From Eledone cirrhosa (taxonomy: Eukaryota), in contig OZ024741.1 of assembly GCA_964016885.1 (NCBI GenBank), forward strand, positions 410,998,001 to 411,062,000: DNA of 64,000 bases, in the 5' to 3' direction. The position numbers were made by a program, and so were the translations under genes. Below, one piece after another: positions 23,474 through 49,096 of the stretch. Below the pieces are notes generated by a model, which made no database searches, was not told the origin of the DNA, and worked only from the letters and a program-made list of their open reading frames with translations. Position 1 is the first letter of the stretch, and every line of letters starts with the position of its first letter.

Positions 23474-23539
23474 TCTTCCTTCTCAATGAAATTTAATTAA
23501 AGATTAAAAAAAGGCACAATAATTTAAAGTAACATATAT

Positions 23540-23545: not shown

Positions 23546-23563
23546 TAATACGAGGTTTGATGT

Positions 23564-23740: not shown

Positions 23741-23846
23741 CTGAAGAATAAAAGTAAGAAAACATAAACACATATATTTGGCTAAGTTAGACACAAGCAA
23801 CCATGAAATATATAACATAGAATACAGCCACTACTTATTAACTGAC

Positions 23847-24826: not shown

Positions 24827-25164
24827 CAAGGTGTATATTATGTGTAAAGCCCTACTTCATTGTATGAGGTACACTGTTGAGCAGCATGGTACCAACACTA
24901 CCACTTTACAGAGTGTACAAGGTGTATATTATGTGTAAAGCCCTACTTCATTGTATGAGGTACACTGTTGAGCAGCATGGTACCAACACTACCACTTTAC
25001 AGAGTGTACAAGGTGTATATTATGTGTAAAGCCCTACTTCATTGTATGAGGTACACTGTTGAGCAGCATGGTACCAACACTACCACTTTACAGAGTGTAC
25101 AAGGTGTATATTATGTGTAAAGCCCTACTTCATTGTATGAGGTACACTGTTGAGCAGCATGGTA
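24794..25164. repeat. 91-bp tandem repeat x4 containing the 3' end of a CDC23 exon and its 5' splice site
   Basis: CATGGTA recurs at 24794, 24885, 24976, 25067 and 25158. Each unit carries the minus-strand sequence ..CAGTGTACCTCATACAATGAA|GTAGGG. Confidence 0.95.
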
Positions 25165-25248
25165 GGCCTCATCCAAGAGGTTCTGTCGAAGGTAGAAGTT
25201 TGCCAAGTATTTATAAGCTTGAGCCATCTCTTCACTGGAGTAGAGGTT
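25129..25248 (-). CDS. CDC23: CDC23/APC8 penultimate coding exon
   Basis: TTACAG|AAC...GAA|GTAGGG. 120 nt = NLYSSEEMAQAYKYLANFYLRQNLLDEAYHAAQQCTSYNE, similar to vertebrate CDC23 EESTAFRYLAQYYFKCKLWDEASTCAQKCCAFND. Phase 0/0. Confidence 0.92.
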
Positions 25249-25418: not shown

Positions 25419-27149
25419 TTAACCCTTTAGCATTTAAACCGGACATATCCGGCCAGAATTCTGTCACCTTTTTCTGTTCAAACTGGCTGTATCTGTCCAC
25501 TCATACTGACGTTAAGGTATTGTTCTCAAAATGAATAATATCGAAATTTCATAGATTCGATATTATGTGAGATATTTATGTAAAGCTTTTACCATGAAAA
25601 TATAATAGTATATATAGAGTAATGTAAATGTTATGTGAGATATTATGTGAGGTAAAACCTTTACTGTGAAAATATAATAGTATATATAGAGTAATGTAAA
25701 TGTTATGTGAGATATTATGTGAGGTAAAACCGTTACTGTGAAAATATAATAGTATATATAGAGTAATGTAAATGTTATGTGAGATATTATGTGAGGTAAA
25801 ACCGTTACTGTGAAAATATAATAGTATATATAGAGTAATGTAAATGTTATGTGAGATATTATGTGAGGTAAAGCTTTTACCATGAAAATATAATAGTATA
25901 TATAGAGTAATGTAAATGTTATGTGAGATATTATGTGAGGTAAAACCTTTACTGTGAAAATATAATAGTATATATAGAGTAATGTAAATGTTATGTGAGG
26001 TATTATGTGATGTAAAGCCTTTACTGTGAAAATACAATAGTATATATAGAGTAATGTAAATGTTATGTGAGATATTATGTGAGGTAAAACCTTTACTGTG
26101 ACAATACAATAGTAGATATAGAGTAATGTAAATGTTATGTGAGATATTATGTGAGATAAAGCCTTTACTGTGACAATACAATAGTATATATAGAGTAATG
26201 TAAATGTTATGAGATATTATGTGAGGTAAAGCCTTTACTGTGAAAATACAATAGTATATATAGAGTAATGTAAATGTTATGTGAGATATTATGTGAGGTA
26301 AAACCTTTACTGTGAAAATATAATAGTATATATAGAGTAATGTAAATGTTATGTGAGATATTATGTGAGGTAAAACCTTTACTGTGAAAATATAATAGTA
26401 TATATAGAGTAATGTAAATGTTATGTGAGATATTATGTGAGGTAAAACCTTTACTGTGAAAATATAATAGTATATATCGAGTAATGTAAATGTTATGTGA
26501 GATATTATGTGAGGTAAAGCCTTTACTGTGAAAATACAATAGTATATATAGAGTAATGTAAATGTTATGTGAGGTATTATGTGATGTAAAGCCTTTACTG
26601 TGAAAATACAATAGTATATATAGAGTAATGTAAATGTTATGTGAGATATTATGTGAGGTAAAACCTTTACTGTGACAATACAATAGTAGATATAGAGTAA
26701 TGTAAATGTTATGTGAGATATTATGTGAGATAAAGCCTTTACTGTGACAATACAATAGTATATATAGAGTAATGTAAATGTTATGAGATATTATGTGAGG
26801 TAAAGCCTTTACTGTGAAAATACAATAGTATATATAGAGTAATGTAAATGTTATGTGAGATATTATGTGAGGTAAAACCTTTACTGTGAAAATATAATAG
26901 TATATATAGAGTGGTTTCTTTATTTGCCACTAGGGCACAAAAGGTAGGGACAGATACAAGGGGGGAAGTTTACATATAATTAACGAGTACAAAAATATAA
27001 CAATGAAATAACAACAACAAACGAAGTCCTCAATAGGGAGGGGGCATTAACATGGGTCGCACACACCCTGGAAAAAATGTGTAACCCTTCTCCTCAGGAG
27101 CACAAAGAGTAGGTGCTTCCCTCGTCTCCGCTTTTTCCTCTTCTTTCAC

Positions 27150-30100
27150 CTACAGGCTGATATAGAGAGAAGACCCATTCACTCTGGCCATTCTCCCTAC
27201 TTTCACCCACCTTTCATAAAACTTGCTGGGGTAGAGCACCTCTCTCTCCATTCTGATCCTTCTTTTAAAATGGTATTTGAAAAAGGGGACCAGTTGTTGG
27301 CCGGAGAGAAAGGTGTCTGACCTCAGCCCTTTCAGCCTCGTCCACCATACAACTTCTTTAGCCATGGCTACCACACAGAGAAAAACCGCCTCTCCTTCGT
27401 TTTTGAAAGGGGGAGGCGGTTTGATCGTGACAATGGACTCGGTGGTCAACCGGATTGGTCCCACCCTCGACAGTAGTCGTTCCACATAGCCCCACAGGTC
27501 AGCAATGCCTGGGCAGTGTACGAATGCGTGCGCAACGGTTTCGTCATCATGCACGCATCTCGGACAGATCTTATTCAAAGGATCTCTACCCAGGCTCCCA
27601 TGCCTGTGGAGCTTGTCTCGAACGGGTAGAGCCCCTCGGTAGCACTGCCAAGCCAGGGACTTTTGGAAGTTGTCCATCGGTCCAGGGCCAAACGTCCTAC
27701 CGAACAGACTGGCCAGTTCATCTTCCTCCATGCCTAGAGCTTCTCCGAGAGCATCGTCGCACCTGCTGCGTACCAACCCTCTATAGAATGTCGAGGTGGA
27801 GTCTCCACTGATTGCCGGGTCCGCTTTCCAGAGGGCCGTGAGCGCCTGGGCACATTCAATGTGCCAGTCGCCCACTTTTCTCGGTCTTTGCTTGACCCAG
27901 GATTGCAGCTCGGTGAGCGAGACGAGTCTGGGAAAGGCTCGCCTCACAAACGGGGCCCACACCGGTTGACCGGTGAGGAATACCTGGAGGTGCCGTAGCC
28001 TTAATGCGTGTTTACGCATCTGTAGCCACGGCATCCCCAGCCCTCCTTTCGAAGGGTGTTGACAGCAGATGGATCTCCTCACCAAAGGGGTCCGCTTGTT
28101 CCAAAGAAATTGGAACAGCGCGCACTCCATTTTGGCGAGTCTTTTCACTGGGCAAGGCACGACGGTCAAGCGGTAGTAGATGACGGATGCTATATAAGTA
28201 TTCGCCACCTCCGCTCGACCTTTCAGGGATAGTTTGCACTGGGCCCACTTCTGGGTGAGTGCAAACACCCTGGCCGTTACCTCGTTCCAGTTTTTCTCCA
28301 CCTGGAGGTCTGGTCCGAACCAGACCCCAAGCAGCTTCACCGGGCCCTCCGTCCAGCGTCCGACGACGTCGTTGGAGGGCATCGGTTTGCCTCTCCATGT
28401 TCCGAGTTGCAAACCGACGGACTTGTCCCGGTTCAGCTTGGCTCCTGTAAACCTTTCATATTCCTCCAGTAAGGTGCCGATCTCACCGATTTGCGAGGTT
28501 TTCGACACCATTACTGTCACGTCATCGGCGTAGGCCGACGCCGCTTTCTGCAATCCCGGTTCCAAAGGGATGCCCTGCAACCGCTCCAACTTCCGCAGTA
28601 GTGGCTCAAGAGCCAGCACATACAGTAGGGAGGAGAGAGGGCATCCCTGTCGGATGGATCGCATGATTTGGAACGGCTCCGAGAGGTGGCCGTTCACCTT
28701 GACCCTTGAGCAGACGTTGCTGCTGTGCATCGCAGCAATCCAACCCCTGAAAACGGGTCCGAAGCCTGCCGCCGCGAGCACCGCATCCAGGTAACGATGG
28801 TCAACCCTATCGAAAGCTTTAGATTGATCCAAGTTGATCAGGGCCCCACCAAAGCCGGGTTCATTCCCTACCCTCTCTATGATGTATCGCATAAGGTGGA
28901 GATTGTCGTGAATGGACCTGGACGGGATTGCGCATGTCTGCGCTTCTCCCACCAGGTTTCCAACGACAAGCGCCAACCTCTTCGCTAACACCTTGGCCAA
29001 AATCTTTAACTCTGTATTTAGCAGAGTTATGGGCCTGAAGTTACTTATGTCATCCCCCTTGTTCTCATCCTTCCTCACCAGCGTAACTACGCCCTTGGTC
29101 ACAGAACTGGGAATTCTCCCGTTCTGCTGCCAGTTGCAGTAGACCGCTTCGAGGATATCGGAGAACAAGTCCGGCATCGCTACATATAGCTCGTATGGTA
29201 GACCATCGAGACCCGGGGATTTGCGTTTGCCGCATTGGCTCAGCGCCGCCCCTATCTCAGCAGCTGAAATCGTCCTTTCGCAGGACTTCGCCTCCGCGTC
29301 CGAGAGGCGCGGCAGACCGTCGAGGTATGGATTGAAATCCATAGTCTCACCCGGCACGCCGCCCCTCTCGAACAGTCGTGCAAAGTGCCGCTGAAAGGCC
29401 GCACACATCTGCCCAGGTTCAAGGATCACACGCCCATCCTGGTCCTTCAAAGACCGAATCGTGGACTTGTTCCCACTTTTTGCCTCTGTCACTCGGGCCC
29501 AGCTCACAGCTTTGGCTCCCTCATTACCCAGAGCACGTATTTTACTCCTGACAACGCAGCCTTCATGCTTCACCTCAAAGAACTGGTCTAAGGCCATTCT
29601 TGATGCCAGCACGCCGGCTACATTGCCACTCCTAATCGCCTCTTCTACTCTATCTACTAATTCCCTTTCCGTCTTGTTCCTATCCCTTGCTAATTCCTGA
29701 CTAAAACCTATCGATTCTATTCTAATTGCTCTCTTAAGAGAGCTCCACCACCTGTTGTTGACAATTGCCCCTGTCAAACTCTGCTTAACTAACGTGCTAA
29801 TCCGTTTACTGTAAGCTTTGCTTCTCGGTAAGGACAAGTTCAGCTTCCAGTAACCGGGTCCCTGTCTATGGGTTCTATCAAGGTTGGCTATGCAGGTCAC
29901 TAACTTGTGATCCGAATAGTCAACCATGAACATTTTTGGACAGCTAAATGTGTCCCTATCGTTCTCTCTAACTAGGACCCTATCTAGGTACGACCTAGAT
30001 GTTCCACTGCGATTGGTCCACGTCCATAGTGGTACAGTCGGAAAATCTAGTCGATATCTATCGGCCAGGTCAAATCGGCCGATTAACCTTTTGAGGCTTT

Positions 30101-30587
30101 TACACCCCCCTCTATTGGCACATGCCCCTACATAGTCCCAACGTGCATCCAGGATACCATTCCAGTCCCCCACTAAAAGCAAGGAGCGGGACGTTCCCAG
30201 AAAAGTTTCCAGACGTTGGAAGTATTCCGGCCGCGCTGCCCAAAAAGGGGCGTACACAGCTATTAGTCTAAGGGCTCCACTTTCACTACTGCCGACGTCT
30301 AAAACCACCAGTCGACCCTCCGGGTCCAGGTGCACCTTCTGTATGGCGAGGCCCAGGTGTTTTCGCAGCAGAACGACAACTCCACCCCCACCCCCCGGTT
30401 GACAGAGAGATGCGAAGATCTCAAAGTCGTCGAAGAGGGGCGCCAGTTGGTGCTCGCTGCTGATCCTGGACTCGCAAATAGCCATTACATCCATTCTATG
30501 CGACCTGAGATCGTTTAAAAGTTTGCCTTGTTTCCAAGACAGTCCCAGGCCACGTACATTCAGACACCCAACTCTTATATCAGCCAT
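27150..30587 (-). CDS. Tx1-type ORF2: APE endonuclease, reverse transcriptase and C-terminal zinc-binding domain (1145 aa, intact)
   Basis: EN motifs LNVRGL, VYAP, GDWN, YLDRV, SDH. Linker GPGYWKLN. RT motifs KSPGLDG, FRPITLLN, DQSKAFDRV, IRQGCPLS, YADD. C-terminal CPRC..ETVAHAFVHC. Confidence 0.96.
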   Translation of the reverse strand: MADIRVGCLNVRGLGLSWKQGKLLNDLRSHRMDVMAICESRISSEHQLAPLFDDFEIFASLCQPGGGGGVVVLLRKHLGLAIQKVHLDPEGRLVVLDVGSSESGALRLIAVYAPFWAARPEYFQRLETFLGTSRSLLLVGDWNGILDARWDYVGACANRGGCKSLKRLIGRFDLADRYRLDFPTVPLWTWTNRSGTSRSYLDRVLVRENDRDTFSCPKMFMVDYSDHKLVTCIANLDRTHRQGPGYWKLNLSLPRSKAYSKRISTLVKQSLTGAIVNNRWWSSLKRAIRIESIGFSQELARDRNKTERELVDRVEEAIRSGNVAGVLASRMALDQFFEVKHEGCVVRSKIRALGNEGAKAVSWARVTEAKSGNKSTIRSLKDQDGRVILEPGQMCAAFQRHFARLFERGGVPGETMDFNPYLDGLPRLSDAEAKSCERTISAAEIGAALSQCGKRKSPGLDGLPYELYVAMPDLFSDILEAVYCNWQQNGRIPSSVTKGVVTLVRKDENKGDDISNFRPITLLNTELKILAKVLAKRLALVVGNLVGEAQTCAIPSRSIHDNLHLMRYIIERVGNEPGFGGALINLDQSKAFDRVDHRYLDAVLAAAGFGPVFRGWIAAMHSSNVCSRVKVNGHLSEPFQIMRSIRQGCPLSSLLYVLALEPLLRKLERLQGIPLEPGLQKAASAYADDVTVMVSKTSQIGEIGTLLEEYERFTGAKLNRDKSVGLQLGTWRGKPMPSNDVVGRWTEGPVKLLGVWFGPDLQVEKNWNEVTARVFALTQKWAQCKLSLKGRAEVANTYIASVIYYRLTVVPCPVKRLAKMECALFQFLWNKRTPLVRRSICCQHPSKGGLGMPWLQMRKHALRLRHLQVFLTGQPVWAPFVRRAFPRLVSLTELQSWVKQRPRKVGDWHIECAQALTALWKADPAISGDSTSTFYRGLVRSRCDDALGEALGMEEDELASLFGRTFGPGPMDNFQKSLAWQCYRGALPVRDKLHRHGSLGRDPLNKICPRCVHDDETVAHAFVHCPGIADLWGYVERLLSRVGPIRLTTESIVTIKPPPPFKNEGEAVFLCVVAMAKEVVWWTRLKGLRSDTFLSGQQLVPFFKYHFKRRIRMEREVLYPSKFYERWVKVGRMARVNGSSLYISL

Positions 30588-30608
30588 GTTGGTTAAAAGA
30601 GGAAGGAC

Positions 30609-32331
30609 CTACCTGTTCGGCTCCTGAGGAGCAGGTTGCACAATATCCATGGGCGTATTGGAGGGGTTGTTTGGTGGGGTGTTGTTCTGTGGTGGAGTGG
30701 GGGTGTTTGGTGAGGTGTGGGTGGGGAAACGTTTCAAGAGGACGCGGTTATAGGGTCGAGTACATGTTTTCCCCACGTCCTCAGGAAAGTTCTCTCTTAG
30801 TTTTGCATAGGTGTCCATTGGGAGTCTTATCATTTTTAAATGCGGTTTGTTGGCCGCACTTGCAAAGAATTGCCCTTCAGTTTCCACCGAAGGGTCTTTG
30901 TGTATTGTTTTTACTAGTTCTTTGTTATTTGTGTTAATGTATGTATACTGTTTTATTTGTGTTGTGTTTGTTTGTTGTTCTTGTGTGTGCTTACGTTTTG
31001 TTGTATGTGTTATGTTTTGGGGTGGGGCGGATTTTGTTTGTTCTGTTTGTTTTGTTTTTGTTGGTGGTTGTGTGTTTGTTTCGTTTATGTTCGAGTGGTG
31101 CTTTCTTTTTTTCCTTTTTACAGGTTCGAAGGGTTCCCCCTCTTCGTCACTAGGTGCCGTTTCAGCTGGGTCCTCGTCCGTGCTGTCGGGTAGTGGTGTA
31201 TTTTGGGGTTTTTTTGTATTTGTGTGTTTTGGGAGTTGTTTTGGGTGGGGCCGTGTCTTGTGTTATTTTTCCGTGTTGTTTTTGTTGTTGTTGTGGTGGT
31301 GGTGGTGGAGGTGGCGGTGGTGGTGTGTGGGGTGTAGGCAAAAGAGCCTTTTTTTTTGTCAATTGAGGACAAGCAGCCCTTAGATGACCCCTGCTTGAAC
31401 AGTAGTAACATATGGGCCTCCTACCCTCGGCTGAAATGTATATAAATGTTTCTCCATCGAGGGACACCCTCTATGGTATTCTAGCTATTCGTTCTGGTCT
31501 CATTTGGACCAGAACCTCCACGCTCAAACCGCCGAAAACGTCTGTGGTGACTTCTCCTACTGAGAGGATTCCGTCCTCGTCTTCTAAAAATCCTGTTAGT
31601 ACCCAGGAAATGCATGCATTTGGCCGGATTCCGGAGACCCTTATTTTCTGCGTTCTTTTCCCTAAATATGTGGGGAAAAATGTATGTAGCTTGGAAACAA
31701 TTGGCGCCACAGAGTATTTCCTGGCCGTCAATTGATTCTTCATTAGGACCGTTATATTCCCATAGAGTGGCCCTTTTTGTATGAACGATATATCACTCCA
31801 CACATTTTTTAGGACCAGCTCAATCTCTTTTTGGGATAATTGAGCTGGTTTCCTTGTTATGTTGGAAATTGTTCTGAAAGATATCGTTCTTAGCGTCATG
31901 TCTCTTTTGATTTCTTGTGGGGAGGTGATTGTGAAGTCTCCTCCTTCTTTGAAAGTTACATACTGTTTTGCTTCCTTCATCTTTTCTCTCAGAGTTGTAA
32001 TGTCCAGTTGCTTGCAGGTTTGTGTTTTCCGGACCGCCTGTGCAAAGGAGGCACCAGTAGCGGGTTCGCTTTGTTTGGTGTTCTCGTTATTTTTTCCTTG
32101 GTTGGTGTTGTGACTATTGCTGTTATTGTCGTTGTTGTTTTTGTCTGCGTTTATGTGACTTTCTGGGTTTTCACCCATTTTTACAAATTTTTCTTTTAAT
32201 TCCGTGTTCCATGTTTCTTTTGCAGAAGTGAGGAGGGAAGACTTAGAGCCTTGTGCTTCTAGCTTCTCTGTATCACCTTTCTTAGGGGGCGTGGCTTTCA
32301 CGTTAGGATGAGATGTGAAAATTCCGTCCAT
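30609..32331 (-). pseudogene. Tx1-type ORF1 (gag-like, CX2CX4HX4C knuckle), disrupted
   Basis: ORFs 31471-32424 and 31162-31467 are in one frame, separated by a single TAG (31471-31473). Knuckle CYYCSSRGHLRAAC. The C-terminal part (..PDSTDEDPAETAPSDEE..PAPQEPNR*) is in another frame, implying a frameshift near 31200-31260. Confidence 0.82.
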
Positions 32332-32945
32332 TTCTATTAGTTTGCCGTAATAAGTTTTTAACTGGAAAATTCGCCCCAAAAAGGGGCGAAAATAAATAAA
32401 CTCAAAGTTTGACGACCAAGGCAAGGGGTTAACGTATATTACAGTATAAAAAATTAATCAAAACTCACTTTTGAGTAAGTAAATCCGACTCAGTAGCTGA
32501 GCTTGTTCACACACGTCTCTCGTATACGAGATGTTATGTGAGATATTATGTGAGGTAAAGCCTTTACTGTGAAAATACAACAGTATATATAGAGTAATGT
32601 AAATGTTATGTGAGATATTATGTGAGGTAAAGCCTTTACTGTGAAAATACAACAGTATATATAGAGTACTGTAAATGTTATGTGAGATATTATGTGAGGT
32701 AAAACCTTTACTGTGAAAATACAATAATATATATAGAGTAATGTAAATGTTATGTGATATATTAAGTGAGGTAAAACCTTTACTGTGAAAATATAATAGT
32801 ATATATAGAGTAATGTAAATGTTATGTGAGATATTATGTGTGGTAAACCTTTACTGTGAAAATACAATAGTATATATAGAGTAATGTAAATGTTATGTGA
32901 GGTATTATGTGAGGTAAAACCTTTACTGTGATAATACAATAGTAT

Positions 32946-33685
32946 CATCATCATCATCATCAACGTTTAACGTCCGTGTTCCACGCTTGCATGGGTTTGG
33001 ACGGGGGTAGTCCCACTTGAGGCAAGAGTGATTGTCTTGCTCGCATAGGACTGTCTGGCAGGTTTTCTACAGTTGGATGCCCTTCCTAACACCAACCACA
33101 TTTACAGTGTGGGTCTGGGAGGTTTTTACCGTGTTGCCTACACGGCCACATTACAGCGTGGACTGTCTGTTTTTTTGTCGTGACACCTACACAATCTCAT
33201 TTGTTTTGGCCTGGATGGCGCGGCACCAACATAACTTTACATAGAACGGGGTGGTGTGGATGGGGTGGGGGTGGTGGCGGGACGGGGTGTATTTTGTTAG
33301 AGATGCCTACTGGCAAGGCGGGTCTTCTCTGTTACTGAGTACCGCCAAAGGTCTCGGTCCAGTGACATTGTCTTGGAGAGGTGTAAGTGTGTGAGGTCGG
33401 AGTTTATCAGCTCGTCCCAGGTTTTTCTAGGTCTGCCTATTCCGTGGCTACCGTCTATCTTTATTGCCCTGCACTTTGTTATACAGCTATCGACTTTCAT
33501 GCGCATCACGTGTCCATACCAACGTAGCCTTCTCTTGAGTAAACAACATCTGATCCCTCTTATCTCTAATTTTTTCCTTAGTTCGTTTATGCTTTGCCGT
33601 TCACGTATATTACTGTTACACATCTAGCGGAGCATGCAAGCTTCGTTCCTCTCTAGTCTGCGTATATCCTCTGCACACAATGCCC
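32946..33685 (-). mobile_element. 5'-truncated RTE-clade LINE (subfamily A) with (GAT)n tail
   Basis: C-terminal RTE motifs RRLRWYGHVMRM and GRPRKTW. The tail abuts the array at AATAGTAT|CATCAT, and the array resumes at AGTATATATAG. Confidence 0.9.
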
Positions 33686-34557
33686 AGTATATATAGAGTA
33701 ATGTAAATGTTATGTGAGATATTAAGTGAGGTAAAGCCTTTACTGTGAAAATACAATAGTATATATAGAGTAACGTAAATGTTATGTGATATATTAAGTG
33801 AGGTAAAGCCTTTACTGTGAAAATATAATAGTATATATAGAGTAATGTAAATGTTATGTGAGATATTATGCGAGATAAAGCCTTTACTGTGAAAATACAA
33901 TAGTATATATAGAGTAATGTAAATGTTATGTGAGATATTAAGTGAGGTAAAGCCTTTACTGTGAAAATACAATAGTATATATAGAGTAATGTAAATGTTA
34001 TGTGATATATTAAGTGAGGTAAAGCCTTTACTGTGAAAATACAATAGTACATATAGAGTAATGTAAATGTTATGTGATATATTAAGTGAGATAAAGCCTT
34101 TACTGTGAAAATACAATAGTATATATAGAGTAATGTAAATGTTATGTGAGATATTATGTGAGGTAAAGACTTTACTGTGAAAATACAATAGTATATATAG
34201 AGTAATGTAAATGTTATGAGAGATATTATGTGAGGTAAAGCCTTTACTGTGAAAATACAATAGTATATATAGAGTAATAATAATGAAATTATTGTGTACA
34301 GTGCTCAGGTGCACTACAACTCATCAAAGGTGCATGTATAGTACATAGAATAATGTACAAATGTCAGGAAAATGAACAGTGTATGAGTCATGATATAATA
34401 ACAATAACAATAATGAAATATTGTGTACAGTGCCCAGGTGCACCACAACTCATCAAAAAAGTGTATGTATAGTACATAGGGCAATGCACAAACATCAGTA
34501 AAATGAACGGTGCACGAGTCATGATACACACGTGTGCATGTGTATGGAAGGGGTACA

Positions 34558-36790
34558 TCAGGTGTAGTTTTGGCGTATTTCGGGAAGCATGAGTGTCTTA
34601 AAGGATGCAGTGTCTCGGCAGCTAACAATTGACGCAGGCAGTTTGTTCCATGCTTCAGCAACTCTGAGCGTGAAAAAATGTCTGCGAAAGTCATGGGAGC
34701 TGTGCTGTTTTCTTATCTTGTAGGCATGTCCACGTGTGTTCGACACATGGAGATCAAAGAGGCGCTCAGGGTTGCAGTTGGCGAGATGGTTAAAAACTTT
34801 GAGGGTATTCACCAAGTCCATTGCCAGACGTCGGAGCTTCAATGAATCCATGCCCAGGGAAGCAAGGCGTTCAGAGTATGGTAGGTGTCTGATGGAGGGT
34901 ATGCGCTTGGTTGCACGTCTCTGAACAGTTTCCAGGAGGTCAATGTTCCGAGCAAGATAGGGGTTCCAGACTGATGATGCGAATTCCAAGTGTGGTCGCA
35001 CCATAGCTGTATACAGTTTTAAATAGATGGCTGGAGAGCGGCTAACAAAGGTCTTGCTGAGAGATGCCAAGACACCCTCGGCCTTCTTGACAATCTTAGA
35101 GACATGCTTTGTCCAACGCAAATCGTTGCTGACAGTAATGCCCAGGTCACGTTCACAAGAGGACTTTTTGATGTCAGTGTTGTGGAGGGAGTATGTGGAC
35201 GCTGGACTTTTCCTTCCAAAATGCATGGTGGTACACTTGTCCACAGCCAGCTTCAGTTGCCAGTCTGTGATCCATTGCTGCATTGTGTCCAGGTCTGACT
35301 GTAGGAAAGAGTTGTTAATTTCAGGATCAGTCCTTTTGATTTCAAGGTACAGCTTGATGTCATCTGCATATTTTAGTACCGTGGCATTCTGTAAGTTGGC
35401 ATCTATGTCATTAATATATGCCACAAACAAAAGAGGACCAAGAACAGATCCCTGTGGTACACCAGATGACATCTCATATGGTGAAGAATGCTGTCCTAGA
35501 ACCGTGACTACTTCCTTTCGGCTGAGAATGAAGGATTTCAGCCAGTCGAAAAGATCATCCCTCACACCCATAAGTCTTTTGTGTGGCACAGAATTAAAAG
35601 CCTTAGCAAAGTCAAGGTAAACAACATCCACCCATGAGCCGTTGTCAGTGATCCGGGTGATGTCCTCAAGGAACTCAATAAGCTGATCACAGCAGCTGGA
35701 GTTAGGGATAAATCAAACTGTGAGGGCCGGATGAGGCTGTGAGAGCTCCAGAAGTTCCAAAGTGTTTCTCTGACACAGGATTCCATCAGTTTGGCCATAC
35801 AGCTAGTAAGACTGACTGGACGATAGTTGACAGGTGACATGCGGTTGCCCTTTTTGAACAGGGGAATGACACTGGCAGTTTTCCACTGCTCCGGAGTAGC
35901 ACCATTGCTGAGACAGTATTGAAAGAAAAAAGAAAGCTGGCGCAAAAGGAAATCCTCGCCACGTTTGAGAAGCAGGTATGTCACACCATCAAGACCAGGG
36001 GAGGCATAGTTGCGCTTATTCTTAAGGTGACGTCGCAACATTGCAGGTGTAAATTCCATAGTTGTTATGGAATTTGATGTTAGAGATGGTGGAGATGGTA
36101 CATTCTGGTTTTCAACCGTAAAAATACTTGCATAGCACTCAGCAATGAGTTCTGCGCATTCCTTGGGATCGTCAGTGATCTGGCTTGTGTGGGGATTGCG
36201 AAGAGGACCAACTGGAGAGTGAGGTCTCTGCTTTGAATGAACATATTTCCAGAACACCTTACAGTCAGGATTGGTTGCGATGCACTGTTCAAATTCAAGC
36301 ACTGCCTTCTTTGTCACTTGCTTGAGATGGTTAGAAGATTTATTCCGCTTTTTTCTGTTGGCATCCGATTGAAGTCACCTGCAATAAACACATAAGTGGC
36401 TGTTTTCTTGGCAGCAACTCTGAGGATATCGCAAAGCTGTGTGTCCTGATGGTAGTTTGGGGGGCGATAAACAACACCAAGCAGAAGTGTTGACATGGTC
36501 ATATGTATGTCACAGAAAAAAACTTCTTCCTGTGATTCGTTCAAATCAACGCAAGGAATTACCGAAAAGTTTGAACGAGCGTAGACCATCACACCACCAC
36601 CACGGCGGTTAATGCGGTCCTTGCGGAAAAGGTTGTACCCAGTAATGGTGAAAACCCCATCACAGAGTAAGGAATGTGCCCATGTTTCCGTGACTGTGAT
36701 GAAGTCAGGGTCGATGCTTCTGACGTAGGATTCGAACAGATGTATCTTGTTGCATAAACTGCGAGCATTTAAGGACAACAATTTGTACCC
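34558..36790 (-). pseudogene. CR1 ORF2 (EN-RT), broken
   Basis: EN stops right after GDFN (~36368) and is fused out of frame to the pre-RT linker. A 1-nt frameshift at the expected QFGF motif (~35717). A probable short deletion at PHKRLM|GVR. Confidence 0.88.
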
Positions 36791-36837
36791 TGCTCGCAGT
36801 TTATGATGGTGTGTAGAGGGTGGCAGGTTGTTCTGGT

Positions 36838-38189
36838 TTAGTTTCCCAGAGTTGTAGCAGTTTTTACATCGCCAGTTATTGTGGGTAGATCACACTCAGA
36901 CCAGCTGGTATCTCTCTTCCACGTTTCACCAGCCTTGACAAACCTCCAGATCTGCCCATCATCACGCAGACTGAAACTTTCATCTTGTGCTGAGTTCCGA
37001 TTCAAGGAAGCTGCAGCACGTAGTTTTGGACGTACATGGGGTGGTAGGCCTGGGCGTGTTCGGAAGGTAATCCGATTTTCACGCCCAGCTTTAGCAGAGG
37101 CCAGATGATATGAGGTTGCCTCTGCGGGGTCCGAGAAAGACAGCCTGATGAGTCTGGGTTTTGGACCAGGTCGACCAAGGCGGAGGGCACCCTTTGGGGG
37201 AACACAGCCTAGGTCTTTGGCTGAGCTGGCAGCAAATGCCTGAAGATCAGCCTTGTCCTCTGGTACCCCAATGGCAATCACTTCATGGGTAGCAGATTCC
37301 GCAGTCTTTTCAGCAAGAGGTACAGGGAGATTCTTTAGCAAGGCATTCCGATAAGACCCCTCATTGTGGGGTCCTACCCGAATGCTTGCCTCTATTCCTG
37401 CAACTTCCCTTCTCAGAGCAGAAATCATTAGTTGCAGTTCCGCAAAATCTGTACTGGTCGGTTGTTGTTGTTGTTGTTGTTGCTGCTGCTGCTGTCGTTG
37501 TTGGTGATGATGATGCTCCTCCACGGGAATGGCAGGGGAGGACACAGTCGCAGGATGTTGCTGTTGTTGTTGATGTTGGTGATGATGAAGTTCCTTAACG
37601 GGAATGGCAGGGGAGGACACAGTCGCAGGTTGTTGGTGATGATGATGTTCCTCCACGGGAATGGTAGGGGAAGACACAGTCACCAGTTGTTGGTGTCGAG
37701 ATGTACTGGGAGTGGAAGACATGGGTTGTTGTTGTTTCTGATGTTCTCCCACAGGAATAACAGTAGAAGCCAGTGTCATAGGTTTTTGCCGTTGTTCAGT
37801 AACAATGGTAGAGGAAGACACAGTCATTGGTTTTTGTTGTTGTTGTTGTTTTTCAATAACATTAATAACATTAGTGGAGGCAGGCACACAGGCCAGACAC
37901 TGAAAGGACCAGGATTTTAGCTGGACTATCTCCCATATTCCATCCATCATAGCATTATGATGTCTCTTTTTTTGGCCTGGGATCCTCCGGAAGCCTGTGG
38001 CGCATTGAAGGCAGACAGAGATGCGACAGGTTCCACATTCGACCCAGCGATTACGGAACGAGTTTTCGGGTTCCGCACAGATATGGCAGATGTGATTTTC
38101 TGGGCAATGTTCTATTTTGGGACATCGGCCGGTTTTGTCGCATATTTCATCATGGATATCACCATGGCAATTTTGTTATTTCTACCCAT
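36838..38189 (-). pseudogene. CR1 ORF1 with N-terminal PHD-like Cys-rich finger and polyQ/polyH repeats
   Basis: The frame of ORF 36838-37950 stays open upstream: CHIC-x12-CGTC-x4-CLQC...WSFQCLAC. The ATG at 38189 is one base out of frame (A-run near 38171-38174). Confidence 0.8.
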
Positions 38190-38602
38190 CCGTAGAAAAA
38201 CACAGAATGTAAACAATATAGGTTTAGCGCACTCGATTACGATAGAAATAAAATGTAAATGTTATGTGAGATATTATGTGAGGTAAAGCCTTTACTGTGA
38301 AAATACAATAGTATATATAGAGTAATGTAAATGTTATGTGAGATATTATGTGAGGTAAAACCTTTACTGTGTAAATACAATAGTATAAATAGAGTAATGT
38401 AAATGTTATGTGAGATATTATGTGAGGTAAAGCCTTTACTGTGTAAATACAATAGTATATATAGAGTAATGTAAATGTTATGTGAGATATTATGTGAGAT
38501 AAAGCCTTTACTGTGTAAATACAATAGTATATATAGAGTAATGTAAATGTTATGTGATATATTAAGTGAGGTAAAGCCTTTACTGTGAAAATATAATAGT
38601 AT

Positions 38603-40967
38603 CATCATCATCATCATCATCACCGTTTTACGTCCGTTCTTCCACGCTAGCATGGGTTAGACGGGTTGTCCTGTTGTGGGCAGTGTCTGGTCGGCTGACC
38701 ATGCCTTGCTCATACAGGAACTGATCTGGCTTGATTTCTACAGCTGGATGCCCTTCCTAACACCAACCTCATTTACAGTGAGTGCTGGGTGCTTTTTCGT
38801 GGCGCCTACACGTCCACTTTACAGTGTGGGCTGGGTGCTTTTTTGCCGTGGCACCTCCACGACCACCTTGCGGTGGGGGGGGGGGGGGGGCATATTGTTT
38901 ATATGCTTCAGCATGTACCCATGGGAGGTCGGGTACCCTGTATTACTGCGTGACGCCAGAAGTCACGGTCGTGTGTCATTGACTTTGAGAGGTGTAGTTG
39001 GGTAAGGTCGGCTTTTATCACCTCATCCCAAGTCATCTTGGGTCTCCCCACTCCGCGGTTTCCATCAACTTCTAGTGCTCTGCACCTTTTTATGCAGCTG
39101 TCATCCTTCATACGCATCACATGTCCATACCAGCGTAACCGCCTCTCCTGCACGCAGCATTTGATTCCTCTTATGCTCAGTCTCTCTCTCAATTCATTTA
39201 TGCTTTGTCGTTCACGTATATTACTGTTACACATCCATCGGAGCATGCAGGCTTCGTTTCTCTCTAATCTACGTAAGTCTTCCACCTTCAGCGCCCAGGT
39301 CTCACTACCATGCAACATCGCTGTTCGGATACACGCATCATACAGTCTGCCTTTCATTCTGAGGGAGAAGCCTTTTGCAGCTAGCAGTGGTAGTAGTTCC
39401 CTAAACTTCTTCCATCCCGTTCTTACCCTAGTTATTGTACTTTCTGAGCACCCACCTCCGTTGCTAATTCGGTCACCTAGGTAGCAGAAGCTGTCTACTG
39501 TTTCTACAGGGCCCTCCCAGAGATTGGTGGTACTTGTTTCCTGTGGCTGTTTGCTTGCTGTTTCAGCACAGCTGCTGCATGTGAATCCTACATTCTTAAT
39601 TAAGCTTCCTGAGATCCCGCTACATCTCTTGTGTACCCATTGTTTGCATTTGGGGCAAAGAATGGAGTTCCTACCTACACCTTTCCTACATACTGAGCAA
39701 GGCCATTTCCCTGAGGGGATCTGGGTTCTGTTTTCTCGTCTACTTATAAGGACCTTAGTCTTTGTCATGTTGACTTTGAGGCCCTTTCTCTCTAGTCCCT
39801 GCTTCCAGGTTTGGAATTTATTCTCTAGTTCTACCATAGATTCAGCTATGAGTGCGAGGTCATCAGCATACAGGAGTTCCCATGGGCATCCGGTCTTAAA
39901 CTCCTCCGTTATTGCCTGCAGGACTATGATGAACAGGAGAGGGCTAAGAACAGAGCCCTGGTGGACCCCAACCTGTACGCTAAATTCCTCGCTATACTCA
40001 TTGCCAATCCTAACTTTGCTGACTGCTCCCCTATACATGGCTTGTACCGCTTTCACAAGCCATTCATCTACTCCTAGTTTTCTAAGAGCCCACCAGATTA
40101 CTGCACGTGGAACTCTGTCAAAGGCTTTCTCAAGGTCGACAAATGCCAAGTAGAGTGGCTTACTTTTAGCTAGGTACTTTTCCTGTAATTGCCTCACAAG
40201 GAAGAGCGCATCAGTGGTGCCTTTCCCTGGAACAAACCCAAATTGCATCTCGTCTATATTCACCCGGTCCCTAATCAGCTGTGCTATAACTCTTTCTGTT
40301 ACTTTCATGACCTGGTCCATCAACTTTATACCTCTATAGTTTCCTCTATCTAGTGCATCGCCTTTACCTTTGTAGCAGTTGACAATGATGCTACTGCACC
40401 AATCTTTTGGTATGGCCCCCTCTAGTATTACCTGGTTAACGATACGTGTGGTTATAGTGTGACCTACAGACCCAGATGCCTTCAGCATCTCGGCAGCTAT
40501 ACCCGATGGACCGGTTGCCTTCCCTATCTTCATATCTCTGATTGCCTTACTTACTACGCTGCCGCTGACTTGTACTGCTGGTCCCTCTATAGGGTCTACG
40601 TGGGGTAGGGTCTCTTCTTCCCATGCATTCTCCTCATTTAGTAATCTATCATAATGACTCTTCCATGCATCTTTCTTCTCAGCACTTGTGAGGGCAAGCT
40701 CACCTTTATCATTCCGGATACACTTCTCTCCAATGACATCACAACTATCTCTGACACACTGCCTCGCAATCTTGAATACCTCCTGTTTCTGGTCCTCACG
40801 TTGTAAAACATGCTTGAATTTTCTATCCTCTGCTTCCCTCCTAGCTAAGTATACTTGTCGCCTAGCTTCCCTCTTGGTCTCTATGTAATGTACCCTGCTC
40901 CCCCCGTTCTTCCATTCTTTCCATGCCTGTCTCTTGGCCTTGACTGCTTCATCTACCTTATTGTTCC
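38603..40967 (-). mobile_element. 5'-truncated RTE-clade LINE (subfamily B) with (GAT)n tail
   Basis: Tail at AATAGTAT|CATCAT. Homologous to 49131-51450. The 5' truncation point is TTATTGTTCC. Confidence 0.94.
38908..40967 (-). CDS. RTE reverse transcriptase ORF, N-terminally truncated but uninterrupted
   Basis: NYRGIKL, QFGFVPG, FVDLEKAFDRVP, GVHQGSVLSPLLF, LLYADD, an internal CSVC..CPKC..HKRC..CSSC finger, RRLRWYGHVMRM. The first ~87 aa of the track ORF are satellite read-through. Confidence 0.88.
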
Positions 40968-41452
40968 TGAGTATATATAGAGTATATATAGAGTATATAT
41001 ATATAGAGTATATATAGAGTAATGTAAATGTTATGTGAGATATTATGCGAGATAAAGCCTTTACTGTGAAAATACAATAGTATATATAGAGTAATGTAAA
41101 TGTTATGTGAGATATTAAGTGAGGTAAAGCCTTTACTGTGAAAATACAATAGTATATATAGAGTAATGTAAATGTTATGTGATATATTAAGTGAGGTAAA
41201 GCCTTTACTGTGAAAATACAATAGTACATATAGAGTAATGTAAATGTTATGTGATATATTAAGTGAGATAAAGCCTTTACTGTGAAAATACAATAGTATA
41301 TATAGAGTAATGTAAATGTTATGTGAGATATTATGTGAGGTAAAGACTTTACTGTGAAAATACAATAGTATATATAGAGTAATGTAAATGTTATGAGAGA
41401 TATTATGTGAGGTAAAGCCTTTACTGTGAAAATACAATAGTATATATAGAGT

Positions 41453-44400
41453 AATAATAATGAAATTATTGTGTACAGTGCTCAGGTGCACTACAACTCA
41501 TCAAAGGTGCATGTATAGTACATAGAATAATGTACAAATGTCAGGAAAATGAACAGTGTATGAGTCATGATATAATAACAATAACAATAATGAAATATTG
41601 TGTACAGTGCCCAGGTGCACCACAACTCATCAAAAAAGTGTATGTATAGTACATAGGGCAATGCACAAACATCAGTAAAATGAACGGTGCACGAGTCATG
41701 ATACACACGTGTGCATGTGTATGGAAGGGGTACATCAGGTGTAGTTTTGGCGTATTTCGGGAAGCATGAGTGTCTTAAAGGATGCAGTGTCTCGGCAGCT
41801 AACAATTGACGCAGGCAGTTTGTTCCATGCTTCAGCAACTCTGAGCGTGAAAAAATGTCTGCGAAAGTCATGGGAGCTGTGCTGTTTTCTTATCTTGTAG
41901 GCATGTCCACGTGTGTTCGACACATGGAGATCAAAGAGGCGCTCAGGGTTGCAGTTGGCGAGATGGTTAAAAACTTTGAGGGTATTCACCAAGTCCATTG
42001 CCAGACGTCGGAGCTTCAATGAATCCATGCCCAGGGAAGCAAGGCGTTCAGAGTATGGTAGGTGTCTGATGGAGGGTATGCGCTTGGTTGCACGTCTCTG
42101 AACAGTTTCCAGGAGGTCAATGTTCCGAGCAAGATAGGGGTTCCAGACTGATGATGCGAATTCCAAGTGTGGTCGCACCATAGCTGTATACAGTTTTAAA
42201 TAGATGGCTGGAGAGCGGCTAACAAAGGTCTTGCTGAGAGATGCCAAGACACCCTCGGCCTTCTTGACAATCTTAGAGACATGCTTTGTCCAACGCAAAT
42301 CGTTGCTGACAGTAATGCCCAGGTCACGTTCACAAGAGGACTTTTTGATGTCAGTGTTGTGGAGGGAGTATGTGGACGCTGGACTTTTCCTTCCAAAATG
42401 CATGGTGGTACACTTGTCCACAGCCAGCTTCAGTTGCCAGTCTGTGATCCATTGCTGCATTGTGTCCAGGTCTGACTGTAGGAAAGAGTTGTTAATTTCA
42501 GGATCAGTCCTTTTGATTTCAAGGTACAGCTTGATGTCATCTGCATATTTTAGTACCGTGGCATTCTGTAAGTTGGCATCTATGTCATTAATATATGCCA
42601 CAAACAAAAGAGGACCAAGAACAGATCCCTGTGGTACACCAGATGACATCTCATATGGTGAAGAATGCTGTCCTAGAACCGTGACTACTTCCTTTCGGCT
42701 GAGAATGAAGGATTTCAGCCAGTCGAAAAGATCATCCCTCACACCCATAAGTCTTTTGTGTGGCACAGAATTAAAAGCCTTAGCAAAGTCAAGGTAAACA
42801 ACATCCACCCATGAGCCGTTGTCAGTGATCCGGGTGATGTCCTCAAGGAACTCAATAAGCTGATCACAGCAGCTGGAGTTAGGGATAAATCAAACTGTGA
42901 GGGCCGGATGAGGCTGTGAGAGCTCCAGAAGTTCCAAAGTGTTTCTCTGACACAGGATTCCATCAGTTTGGCCATACAGCTAGTAAGACTGACTGGACGA
43001 TAGTTGACAGGTGACATGCGGTTGCCCTTTTTGAACAGGGGAATGACACTGGCAGTTTTCCACTGCTCCGGAGTAGCACCATTGCTGAGACAGTATTGAA
43101 AGAAAAAAGAAAGCTGGCGCAAAAGGAAATCCTCGCCACGTTTGAGAAGCAGGTATGTCACACCATCAAGACCAGGGGAGGCATAGTTGCGCTTATTCTT
43201 AAGGTGACGTCGCAACATTGCAGGTGTAAATTCCATAGTTGTTATGGAATTTGATGTTAGAGATGGTGGAGATGGTACATTCTGGTTTTCAACCGTAAAA
43301 ATACTTGCATAGCACTCAGCAATGAGTTCTGCGCATTCCTTGGGATCGTCAGTGATCTGGCTTGTGTGGGGATTGCGAAGAGGACCAACTGGAGAGTGAG
43401 GTCTCTGCTTTGAATGAACATATTTCCAGAACACCTTACAGTCAGGATTGGTTGCGATGCACTGTTCAAATTCAAGCACTGCCTTCTTTGTCACTTGCTT
43501 GAGATGGTTAGAAGATTTATTCCGCTTTTTTCTGTTGGCATCCGATTGAAGTCACCTGCAATAAACACATAAGTGGCTGTTTTCTTGGCAGCAACTCTGA
43601 GGATATCGCAAAGCTGTGTGTCCTGATGGTAGTTTGGGGGGCGATAAACAACACCAAGCAGAAGTGTTGACATGGTCATATGTATGTCACAGAAAAAAAC
43701 TTCTTCCTGTGATTCGTTCAAATCAACGCAAGGAATTACCGAAAAGTTTGAACGAGCGTAGACCATCACACCACCACCACGGCGGTTAATGCGGTCCTTG
43801 CGGAAAAGGTTGTACCCAGTAATGGTGAAAACCCCATCACAGAGTAAGGAATGTGCCCATGTTTCCGTGACTGTGATGAAGTCAGGGTCGATGCTTCTGA
43901 CGTAGGATTCGAACAGATGTATCTTGTTGCATAAACTGCGAGCATTTAAGGACAACAATTTGTACCCTGCTCGCAGTTTATGATGGTGTGTAGAGGGTGG
44001 CAGGTTGTTCTGGTTTAGTTTCCCAGAGTTGTAGCAGTTTTTACATCGCCAGTTATTGTGGGTAGATCACACTCAGACCAGCTGGTATCTCTCTTCCACG
44101 TTTCACCAGCCTTGACAAACCTCCAGATCTGCCCATCATCACGCAGACTGAAACTTTCATCTTGTGCTGAGTTCCGATTCAAGGAAGCTGCAGCACGTAG
44201 TTTTGGACGTACATGGGGTGGTAGGCCTGGGCGTGTTCGGAAGGTAATCCGATTTTCACGCCCAGCTTTAGCAGAGGCCAGATGATATGAGGTTGCCTCT
44301 GCGGGGTCCGAGAAAGACAGCCTGATGAGTCTGGGTTTTGGACCAGGTCGACCAAGGCGGAGGGCACCCTTTGGGGGAACACAGCCTAGGTCTTTGGCTG

Positions 44401-45428
44401 AGCTGGCAGCAAATGCCTGAAGATCAGCCTTGTCCTCTGGTACCCCAATGGCAATCACTTCATGGGTAGCAGATTCCGCAGTCTTTTCAGCAAGAGGTAC
44501 AGGGAGATTCTTTAGCAAGGCATTCCGATAAGACCCCTCATTGTGGGGTCCTACCCGAATGCTTGCCTCTATTCCTGCAACTTCCCTTCTCAGAGCAGAA
44601 ATCATTAGTTGCAGTTCCGCAAAATCTGTACTGGTCGGTTGTTGTTGTTGTTGTTGTTGCTGCTGCTGCTGTCGTTGTTGGTGATGATGATGCTCCTCCA
44701 CGGGAATGGCAGGGGAGGACACAGTCGCAGGATGTTGCTGTTGTTGTTGATGTTGGTGATGATGAAGTTCCTTAACGGGAATGGCAGGGGAGGACACAGT
44801 CGCAGGTTGTTGGTGATGATGATGTTCCTCCACGGGAATGGTAGGGGAAGACACAGTCACCAGTTGTTGGTGTCGAGATGTACTGGGAGTGGAAGACATG
44901 GGTTGTTGTTGTTTCTGATGTTCTCCCACAGGAATAACAGTAGAAGCCAGTGTCATAGGTTTTTGCCGTTGTTCAGTAACAATGGTAGAGGAAGACACAG
45001 TCATTGGTTTTTGTTGTTGTTGTTGTTTTTCAATAACATTAATAACATTAGTGGAGGCAGGCACACAGGCCAGACACTGAAAGGACCAGGATTTTAGCTG
45101 GACTATCTCCCATATTCCATCCATCATAGCATTATGATGTCTCTTTTTTTGGCCTGGGATCCTCCGGAAGCCTGTGGCGCATTGAAGGCAGACAGAGATG
45201 CGACAGGTTCCACATTCGACCCAGCGATTACGGAACGAGTTTTCGGGTTCCGCACAGATATGGCAGATGTGATTTTCTGGGCAATGTTCTATTTTGGGAC
45301 ATCGGCCGGTTTTGTCGCATATTTCATCATGGATATCACCATGGCAATTTTGTTATTTCTACCCATCCGTAGAAAAACACAGAATGTAAACAATATAGGT
45401 TTAGCGCACTCGATTACGATAGAAATAA
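41453..45428 (-). mobile_element. CR1-clade LINE copy 2, apparently identical to copy 1
   Basis: All ORFs recur at a constant offset of 7177 bp with identical translations and the same lesions. Confidence 0.95.
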
Positions 45429-47274
45429 AATGTAAATGTTATGTGAGATATTATGTGAGGTAAAGCCTTTACTGTGAAAATACAATAGTATATATAGAGT
45501 AATGTAAATGTTATGTGAGATATTATGTGAGGTAAAACCTTTACTGTGTAAATACAATAGTATAAATAGAGTAATGTAAATGTTATGTGAGATATTATGT
45601 GAGGTAAAGCCTTTACTGTGTAAATACAATAGTATATATAGAGTAATGTAAATGTTATGTGAGATATTATGTGAGATAAAGCCTTTACTGTGTAAATACA
45701 ATAGTATATATAGAGTAATGTAAATGTTATGTGAGATATTATGTGAGGTAAAGCCTTTACTGTGTAAATACAATAGTATATATAGAGTACTGTAAATGTT
45801 ATATGATATATTAAGTGAGGTAAAGCCTTTACTGTGTAAATACAATAGTATATATAGAGTACTGTAAATGTTATGAGATATATTAAGTGAGGTAAAGCCT
45901 TTACTGTGTAAATACAATAGTATATATAGAGTAATGTAAATGTTATATGATATATTAAGTGAGGTAAAGCCTTTACTGTGAAAATACAATAGTATATATA
46001 GAGTACTGTAAATGTTATGTGAGATATTATGTGAGGTAAAGCCTTTACTGTGAAAATACAATAGTATAAATAGAGTAATGTACATGTTAAGTGAGATACT
46101 ATGTGAGGTAAAGCCTTTACTGTGAAAATACAATAGTATATATAGAGTACTGTAAATGTTATGTGAGATATTATGTGAGGTAAAGCCTTTACTGTGAAAA
46201 TACAATAGTATAAATAGAGTAATGTACATGTTAAGTGAGATACTATGTGAGGTAAAGCCTTTACTGTGAAAATACAATAGTATATATAGAGTAATGTAAA
46301 TGTTATGTGAGATATTATGTGAGGTAAAGCCTTTACTGTGAAAATACAATAGTATATATAGAGTAATGTACATGTTAAGTGAGATACTATGTGAGGTAAA
46401 GCCTTTACTGTGAAAATACAATAGTATATATAGAGTACTGTAAATGTTATGTGAGATATTATGTGAGGTAAAGCCTTTACTGTGAAAATACAATAGTATA
46501 AATAGAGTAATGTACATGTTAAGTGAGATACTATGTGAGGTAAAGCCTTTACTGTGAAAATACAATAGTATATATAGAGTAATGTAAATGTTATGTGAGA
46601 TATTATGTGAGGTAAAGCCTTTACTGTGAAAATACAATAGTATATATAGAGTAATGTACATGTTAAGTGAGATACTATGTGAGGTAAAGCCTTTACTGTG
46701 AAAATACAATAGTATATATAGAGTACTGTAAATGTTATGTGAGATATTATGTGAGGTAAAGCCTTTACTGTGAAAATACAATAGTATAAATAGAGTAATG
46801 TACATGTTATGTGAGATATTATGTGAGGTAAAGCCTTTACTGTGAAAATACAATAGTATATATAGAGTAATGTAAATGTTATGTGAGATATTATGTGAGG
46901 TAAAGCCTTTACTGTGAAAATACAATAGTATATATAGAGTAATGTAAATGTTATGTGAGATATTATGTGAGGTAAAGCCTTTACTGTGAAAATACAATAG
47001 TATATATAGAGTAATGTAAATGTTATGTGAGATATTATGTGAGGTAAAGCCTTTACTGTGAAAATACAATAGTATATATAGAGTAATGTAAATGTTATGT
47101 GAGATATTATGTGAGGTAAAGCCTTTACTGTGAAAATACAATAGTATATAGAGAGTAATGTGAATGCTAAAGGGTTAAACTGAAATAGGAATGAATTAAA
47201 ATTAATTTAAAAAAAAACAAGAAAGAATCTATAAGGTTAAAGGCCCTCCCCAAATATATATTTCAACAACTTAC

Positions 47275-47380
47275 ATTTTGGTCCCCAATCCTGCGCAGGG
47301 TGTTCTGCCTGTGGACCTGGTTAATATATTGACTGTAGGCTGCAGCAGCCTGTTGCTCCTCATTTAACTTCTCATATAAT
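47275..47380 (-). CDS. CDC23: CDC23/APC8 internal coding exon
   Basis: TGTCAG|A TTA TAT...CAA AAT|GTAAGT. 106 nt = (R)LYEKLNEEQQAAAAYSQYINQVHRQNTLRRIGDQN, similar to KLHEQLTESEQAAQCYIKYIQDI. Phase 2/0 fits both neighbouring exons. Confidence 0.92.
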
Positions 47381-47489
47381 CTGACATGTTAACCAGAAAT
47401 AAGACAATTAGAAATATCCTTCAGTAGTTTATGTAAATTAGTACAATATCAATATAGTATAGCTGGAGAGACCATGTTAGGGGGTTGAG

Positions 47490-48168: not shown

Positions 48169-48547
48169 GGAGGCACATGGCTTAGTGGTTAGAAAATTGA
48201 CCTTGCAGTCGAAAGGTTGTGAGTTCAATTCTTAGACCGGGTGATGTGTTGTTTCCTTGAGCAAGACACTTTATTTCACATTGCTCCAGTTTACTCAGCT
48301 GTAGAAATGAGATGATAGGAATGAGATGATTCCGCTGCAAAGTGGTCGTGGAGGTGCCACGGCAAAAAAGCCCCCAGCCCACACTGCAAAGTGGACATGT
48401 AGGCGCCATGGAAAAAAAAGCACCCACCACTCACTGTAAATGAGGTTGGTGTTAGGAAGGGCATCCAGCTGTAGAAATCAAGCCAGAATCAGTTCCCGTC
48501 CCACCCTTGCAAGCAGGGAAAAGTGGACGTAAAATGATGATGATGAT
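48169..48547 (+). mobile_element. tRNA-derived SINE with RTE-type 3' region
   Basis: A box TGGCTTAGTGG, B box-like GAGTTCAATTC, CORE-like CCTTGAGCAAGACACTT, then sequence matching the RTE 3' UTR and a (GAT)n tail. Flanked by (TA)n. Confidence 0.83.
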
Positions 48548-48566
48548 ATTATATATATATAAAATG

Positions 48567-49087: not shown

Positions 49088-49096
<9 letters not shown>
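48567..49096. mobile_element. foldback/MITE-like element with ~118-bp inverted repeats and an internal direct duplication
   Basis: ~48603-48720 is inverted at ~48979-49096. 48567-48662 is directly repeated at 48886-48981. The flanks are TA-rich. Confidence 0.65.

Follow-up and report, generated by a model that had tools for sequence, protein, structure and literature searches.

We analysed 64,000 nucleotides of the Eledone cirrhosa genome (assembly GCA_964016885.1, contig OZ024741.1, positions 410,998,001 to 411,062,000 of the forward strand; hereafter the window), in which one intron of the CDC23 gene is taken up almost entirely by an array of 72-bp tandem units and the long interspersed nuclear elements (LINEs) within it, enclosed by the ends of a piggyBac-type miniature inverted-repeat transposable element (MITE). 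The host gene was identified as octopod CDC23 from one exon 98% identical to the Octopus bimaculoides protein, with four exons placed by tblastn; the exons on either side of the intron match Octopus bimaculoides CDC23 at 97% and 90%. The intron measures 22,026 bp on the minus strand, with GT at 47274 and AG at 25250-25249, and a contig from run X4 spans exactly 47275-47383, the exon upstream of it. TTAA is found at 25419-25422 and 47175-47178, and the 21,752 bp between them are made up of a 157-bp arm, six array blocks totalling 4,879 bp (~68 units of 72 bp) and five LINE blocks, across all five of which the units keep register. The initial annotation of this DNA had described TTAA-flanked ends bracketing the array and the LINE blocks, in an element that fills nearly the whole intron, and both descriptions agree with these positions. 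The features of the locus, with open reading frame (ORF), terminal inverted repeat (TIR) and reverse transcriptase (RT) abbreviated and positions counted from the first base of the window, are:

25129 to 25248, minus strand: CDC23 exon downstream of the intron (Octopus bimaculoides match)
25419 to 25579, plus strand: left end of the piggyBac-type MITE (TTAA, TIR and arm), similar to that of an autonomous piggyBac
25580 to 26912, plus strand: 72-bp array block 1, 18.6 units (repeat analysis)
26913 to 32530, minus strand: full-length L1/Tx1-like LINE, 5,618 bp, with its 3' end at a fixed target base and its 5' end joined to the next unit
27153 to 30587, minus strand: ORF2, 1,145 aa, intact, with endonuclease (PF03372), RT (PF00078) and zf-RVT (PF13966) domains
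30609 to 32320, minus strand: ORF1 region, broken in this copy; intact copies elsewhere encode ~580 aa, including a CCHC knuckle
32531 to 32554, minus strand: unit-homologous head of ~24 bases at the 5' junction, putatively carried by the element
32531 to 32945, plus strand: 72-bp array block 2 (repeat analysis)
32946 to 33685, minus strand: RTE-like LINE 1, 5'-truncated, with a (CAT)n tail and a 5-bp target duplication
33686 to 34278, plus strand: 72-bp array block 3 (repeat analysis)
34279 to 38251, minus strand: CR1-like LINE, frameshifted, with a (TAA)n tail and a ~3-bp target duplication
38252 to 38602, plus strand: 72-bp array block 4, which holds a duplication breakpoint (repeat analysis and duplication comparison)
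38603 to 40968, minus strand: RTE-like LINE 2, 5'-truncated, with an open RT frame, in the second copy of a duplicated segment
41007 to 45734, plus strand: second copy of the duplicated segment, comprising array block 5, a CR1 copy (41456-45428) and the start of block 6
45429 to 47166, plus strand: 72-bp array block 6, 24.1 units (repeat analysis)
47161 to 47178, plus strand: right TIR and TTAA, matching the autonomous piggyBac right end over 47157-47178
47275 to 47383, minus strand: CDC23 exon upstream of the intron (run X4 contig and Octopus bimaculoides match)

Both ends of the interval belong to one dispersed family. The TIRs of the window element are short, start with CCC and form perfect inverted repeats over 12 bp, or at 13 of 14 positions allowing one mismatch. 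A genome search with the left arm gave 3,652 candidates, of which 40 were scored, and 29 other copies were fetched; 24 of these 29 best copies are 216-244 bp long, with TTAAs and a single unit adjoining the right TIR, which is where the 72-bp unit had been proposed to come from. Copy L006 contains five 60-bp units and copy L014 an array with an RTE in it. TTAA is present on both sides of the window element and of 22 of the 26 other copies with both ends found. Exact matches across the genome number 9,249 for the right end and 20,485 for the array junction, against 0 for the reversed-pattern control in either case, and these matches are therefore not due to chance. A PF13843 search further identified an autonomous piggyBac of 2,575 bp with a 558-aa PF13843 ORF (five checked copies are alike) that shares the ends of the MITE, at 22 of 22 bases on the right and with 76% identity over 65 bases on the left, in support of the piggyBac-type assignment. 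With ends of one family and short copies that hold the unit, the proposed layering of MITE, internal minisatellite and LINEs is upheld, and the ~100-fold inflation suggested for a small MITE compares with a measured expansion factor of ~98. Near-identical 2,575-bp autonomous copies with open 558-aa ORFs (L272-L277) suggest recent activity of the piggyBac, and short MITEs are denser in the chromosome interior.

The locus is not unique: in a sample made up of the first 30 right ends on chromosome C1, 8 MITEs carry arrays and the other 22 are single-unit. Each of the eight arrays has its own unit variants while the junction is mostly identical, and the arrays therefore arose, or were homogenised, locally many times. 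Other arrays contain 5-6 copies of the L1/Tx1-like LINE. Arrays at C1:4.22-4.26 Mb and C10:40.72-40.75 Mb hold six and five copies of this LINE, some of them parted by a single 65-base piece (L154, L329). Both the arrays and the LINE cluster near chromosome ends (C1, C2); on C1, only 1 of 19 matches to the LINE motif lies between 31 and 431 Mb, and that one is a member of a sister family.

The L1/Tx1-like LINE belongs to a family of ~280 copies, and both ORFs are intact in 13 of the 71 full-length copies under the filter of the analysis. It has the features of the L1 group, namely two ORFs, the second with an apurinic endonuclease-type (APE) endonuclease, an RT and a C-terminal zinc knuckle (Pfam). 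The best PDB match of ORF2 is human L1 ORF2p (E=4e-53 over residues 10-864, against E=3e-23 for R2), and there is a weak match to a Stylophora 'Transposon TX1' protein (E=2.5e-15). Look-ups in a protein atlas and protein clusters gave RT and endonuclease labels only, with no clade name. Membership of the Tx1 clade is likely, and the preference for a repeat target that is common, though not universal, in that clade is seen here as well, with 73 of 75 loci at one base. The LINE is likely a newly found, sequence-specific and recently active mobile element.

The family is sequence-specific for one base of the 72-bp unit and enters it by independent insertions in the same orientation. This position of the 3' end was found in 30 of the 30 top-scoring copies and in 28 of the first 30 in genome order. 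Among all fetched loci, base and orientation are the same in 77 of 79 (the tally in the preceding paragraph sets aside four picked by their junction), and the two exceptions are members of the sister family. L190 and the window copy were left out of this tally by a filter, and L301 because it ran off the end of its stretch. Exact counts over the whole genome gave 282 internal 3' motifs and 266 exact junctions, two sets that are not exactly nested. While the MITE arms are 77-91% alike (9-23% apart), the elements in them are on average 1.4% apart. Seven elements on four chromosomes that are 0.02-0.18% apart stand next to different flanking unit variants, some as close as 12-13 bases to the junction, and target duplications of 2-16 bp at the same nick accompany five of six truncated copies. 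Since arms and flanks differ around near-identical elements and truncated copies duplicate their own targets, the insertions are independent. A fixed 65-bp target duplication was also considered and rejected, as the left and right units mostly differ.

The 5' junction is equally uniform. In every one of the 71 full-length copies the element meets its unit 7 bases beyond the position of the nick (exactly so in 70, with a variant in one), and at the window copy (26913-32530) 7 target bases have been lost in this joining. Variants within the first 24 bases are seen in 7 of 71 junction units, but in 30 of 60 of the units that come next and in 40 of 71 of those across the element (Fisher p=5e-7). 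Beyond base 29 no such difference is seen (variants in 53/71, 39/60 and 48/71, respectively), and bases 29-64 of the junction unit follow the local array, not the kin of the element. At L173 and L174, 72-type heads are imposed in 60-bp arrays. These variants suggest that ~24-28 bases of the unit are likely carried on the RNA of the element, with the cDNA annealing to the next unit in the manner of R2. A carried head would need two adjacent units, and full-length copies would therefore be tied to tandem arrays. None of the 71 full-length copies is joined directly to the TIR and only one (L188) has a single unit on each side, yet 22 of 30 sampled MITEs are single-unit; in L311, by contrast, a truncated element sits in a single-unit MITE, with a duplication of 2 bp. 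Transduction of whole units at the 5' end was rejected, as the junction units of near-identical elements diverge past base 29. The 5' end of the LINE has no Rfam match to a ribozyme or other RNA family at E<=0.1, and its fold z of -3.5 was not taken as evidence.

The remaining LINE blocks of the intron carry RT or endonuclease domains (LINEs 2-5) and are provisionally assigned, from motifs and trinucleotide tails, to the RTE and CR1 clades. Positions 33830-38557 and 41007-45734 carry the same 4,728 bp without a difference. Discounting RTE 2, which lies in phase inside the second copy, the duplication has a period of 4,768 bp. We conclude that the second CR1 is the product of a recent ~4.77-kb tandem duplication within the array, a join of two haplotypes being less likely. 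Of the five LINE copies initially described, all five blocks are present, but they correspond to four independent insertions and one duplication, because the two CR1 blocks share this identical segment.

Further insight into the target comes from the sister L1/Tx1-like family, which is ~80% identical, older and dispersed (L163, L175, L371-L400). Its copies adjoin (TATC)n or (TC)n; at least four TATC units come after the element in 21 of 30, and none of the 30 lies in the MITE; in L163, the only copy in which target and tail were checked against each other, the repeat is on both sides. This suggests a switch of target from (TATC)n to the MITE unit, in which the site-specific family would have arisen from the (TATC)n-associated sister by a shift to a similar TC/TA-rich motif of the MITE.

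Overall, we are fairly confident in a reading of the intron as a piggyBac-type MITE with a tandemly repeated subterminal 72-bp segment, one fixed base of which is the genome-wide location of an L1/Tx1-like family. Slippage and unequal exchange, acting locally at a recurrent breakpoint, would have lengthened the array. The fixed site is most likely explained by the predicted endonuclease recognising the unit and priming reverse transcription there. The RNA of the element would start ~24-28 bases inside the neighbouring unit, and the finished cDNA would anneal to the next unit on the TIR side at a cost of 7 target bases. This would account for the presence of full-length copies in arrays and their near absence from single-unit MITEs. 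A TATATATA run of the unit lies ~25-30 bases before the putative RNA start; a promoter role for this TA run, like a role of the endonuclease in driving the growth of arrays, is speculative. More tentatively, and with considerable doubt, the LINE may have switched from (TATC)n to the MITE repeat and become doubly array-dependent, one unit being nicked while its neighbour receives the 5' end and provides the promoter; recurrent array expansion at a fixed breakpoint may itself be driven by these nicks, closing a self-feeding loop of transposon, satellite and retrotransposon that inflates octopus introns.

Several points weigh against this interpretation. The samples were taken from the first chromosomes in order and are not random, with several tandem copies skipped. 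Placement in the Tx1 clade is provisional, and the carried head is deduced from DNA variants. In L307, a truncated copy, the 5' junction falls at the usual point but shows no homology, and this fits a fixed second nick too; L188 equally fits a long target duplication or insertion between two local units. Three junction units are of the 60 type (L122, L158, L170). Arrays and element both lie near chromosome ends and single-unit sites are more diverged, which could explain their avoidance. No empty TTAA site was found among four same-species runs of one study that cover the right end only, where the junction of TIR and flank alone was seen, and without an empty site the locus is compatible with either one insertion or two recombined MITE copies.

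We consider it somewhat unlikely that the uniform 5' junction reflects recognition of the array junction by a protein and a fixed second nick 7 bases away, without a head carried on the RNA. Such a nick would equally give consensus heads and avoidance of single-unit MITEs, and it accommodates the junction of L307. However, no head follows the nick where the truncated copies L311 and L340 went in, the one at L337 is variant, five of the six truncated copies have duplications and not the 7-base loss, and 72-type heads occur in 60-bp arrays.

That both ends come from one single insertion is the simplest reading; it is unproven because every MITE copy carries TTAA, so that matching TTAAs would also be expected if the TIRs came from two same-strand MITE copies with recombined arrays. 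We regard this, or an assembly artefact that created the 4.8-kb duplication by joining two haplotypes, as quite unlikely. The 4,728 duplicated bases are 100% identical and no read or contig was seen to span them, only the right end being covered. Against this, the units are in register from the arm to the TIR, the only foreign DNA consists of LINEs with their own junctions, and RTE 2 lies in phase within the second copy with 60 matching bases before it.

The initial annotation saw the array as attracting three LINE clades. As a general landing pad for all three, it is very unlikely. Four insertions did occur in ~4.3 kb of non-duplicated array versus none in 33 kb of other satellites in the window, and the two RTEs lie at the same base of the unit, a base also favoured by other RTEs that hit it (164 exact matches to the junction, <1% of the family, with 13 of the first 20 at this base). 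Nevertheless, the subfamily of RTE 2 has at least 12,157 copies, with none of the first 30 in the MITE and most at (TA)n, the CR1 family has at least 5,351 copies by pattern search with 0 of 30 in the MITE, and the ordinary neighbouring intron (47.4-53.2 kb) also contains three RTE pieces. RTE and CR1 are genome-wide families that prefer TA-rich sites; their copies here are chance arrivals, which would have come opportunistically to the TA-rich stretch of the unit. The attraction thus holds for the unit-specific L1/Tx1-like family alone, and in place of a general landing pad there is one dedicated LINE with sequence specificity, alongside two opportunists and a duplication, within a layered structure that is real.

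It is highly improbable that the L1/Tx1-like LINE spread with its flanks at the DNA level, by piggyBac hitchhiking or ectopic conversion and not by targeted retrotransposition: although the 5' junctions are uniform, 70 of 76 copies with both ends seen are full-length, arrays provide homology and a 4.8-kb in-array duplication is known in the window, near-identical elements differ in arms, array lengths and flanking variants (the last of which largely refute this reading), truncated copies have their own target duplications at the same base, and four copies in one C1 array are 0.11-0.59% apart and closer to copies on other chromosomes.

In Xenopus laevis, Tx1L inserts in the non-autonomous piggyBac Tx1D, and its endonuclease nicks its own target almost exclusively (PMC4494074, PMC1950540). 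This is the closest known system among those compared, sharing a two-ORF APE-type LINE that sits at one sequence in a non-autonomous piggyBac family, and by analogy the octopus LINE would work like Tx1L. The Xenopus pair belongs to another phylum and has an unrelated target, whereas the octopus target is a 72-bp unit in kilobase arrays within thousands of small MITEs, and a full-length octopus insertion costs 7 target bases and seems to bring with it a head homologous to the target. Tx1D is said to have internal tandem repeats, and Tx1L reportedly has a long target duplication. Other Tx1 families are likewise aimed at DNA transposons or microsatellites, among them the crocodilian Tx1-Mar (in a Mariner) and Tx1-9_AMi, and Kibi/Koshi in microsatellites; the author suggests transcription from the flanking transposon (PMC4494074). 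The octopus differs from the crocodilian case in having ~80% identical microsatellite-associated and MITE-specific families in one genome, with single-base specificity. For R2, upstream 28S sequence is present on the RNA and cDNA annealing has been postulated (PMC3774820); R2 has a restriction-like endonuclease and a ribozyme like that of hepatitis delta virus, while the octopus LINE is APE-type, lacks an Rfam match and finds its homology in the neighbouring repeat unit. Internal tandem repeats are known from other MITEs, including DTC84 of Donax (PMC3879986) and Xmix/Xstir and miDNA4 of Xenopus (PMC9659126), where satellite units were also born inside a non-autonomous DNA element that retains its flanks; the octopus element differs in its piggyBac-type ends and autonomous partner, its dozens of units and its dedicated LINE. 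Annotations of Octopus report recently active L1-Tx1 and piggyBac families, and the passages found contain no target analysis (PMC13282606, PMC8967140). No description of the octopus site-specific LINE was found in the literature on Octopus Tx1, on cephalopod sequence-specific non-LTR (long terminal repeat) elements or on Tx1 with satellite; Repbase, subscription papers and the supplements of PMC4494074 were outside the scope of the search.

Other repeats of the window were also traced. The 61-bp satellite (window 1-22751, >22.6 kb) is an expanded segment from the 3' region of the CR1 family of the window, 88% identical to 34595-34652, and continues into CR1 sequence at 22600-22751. The 47/48-bp arrays (window 23179-24841) are ~74% similar to a 49-bp repeat of the RTE 3' region. 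The 49-bp satellite (window 53397-64000) is the TTAA and terminal segment of another piggyBac family, 87% identical to the end of L271, which encodes a PF13843 transposase. With satellites traced to CR1, RTE and piggyBac pieces, all large satellites of the window therefore appear to derive from transposable elements. A perfect 91-bp repeat (4.1 copies, window 24794-25164) copies the 3' end and GT donor of the CDC23 exon at 25129-25248 and supplies extra donor-like sites. In the next intron (47.4-53.2 kb), a small element with inverted arms (48332-48719 vs 49398-48979) lies at 48560-49090 amid three RTE pieces.

The locus carries a caution, in that LINEs nested in a satellite mix true targeting, chance arrivals and duplications. 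Its site-specific LINE is a young, probably active APE-type retrotransposon with single-base specificity and intact copies, of a kind that our searches did not find described from this group. The locus also provides a concrete route by which a 0.2-kb element became a 22-kb intron in a conserved cell-cycle gene. With a sister family on another target in the same genome, a change in the specificity of a LINE endonuclease becomes directly testable.

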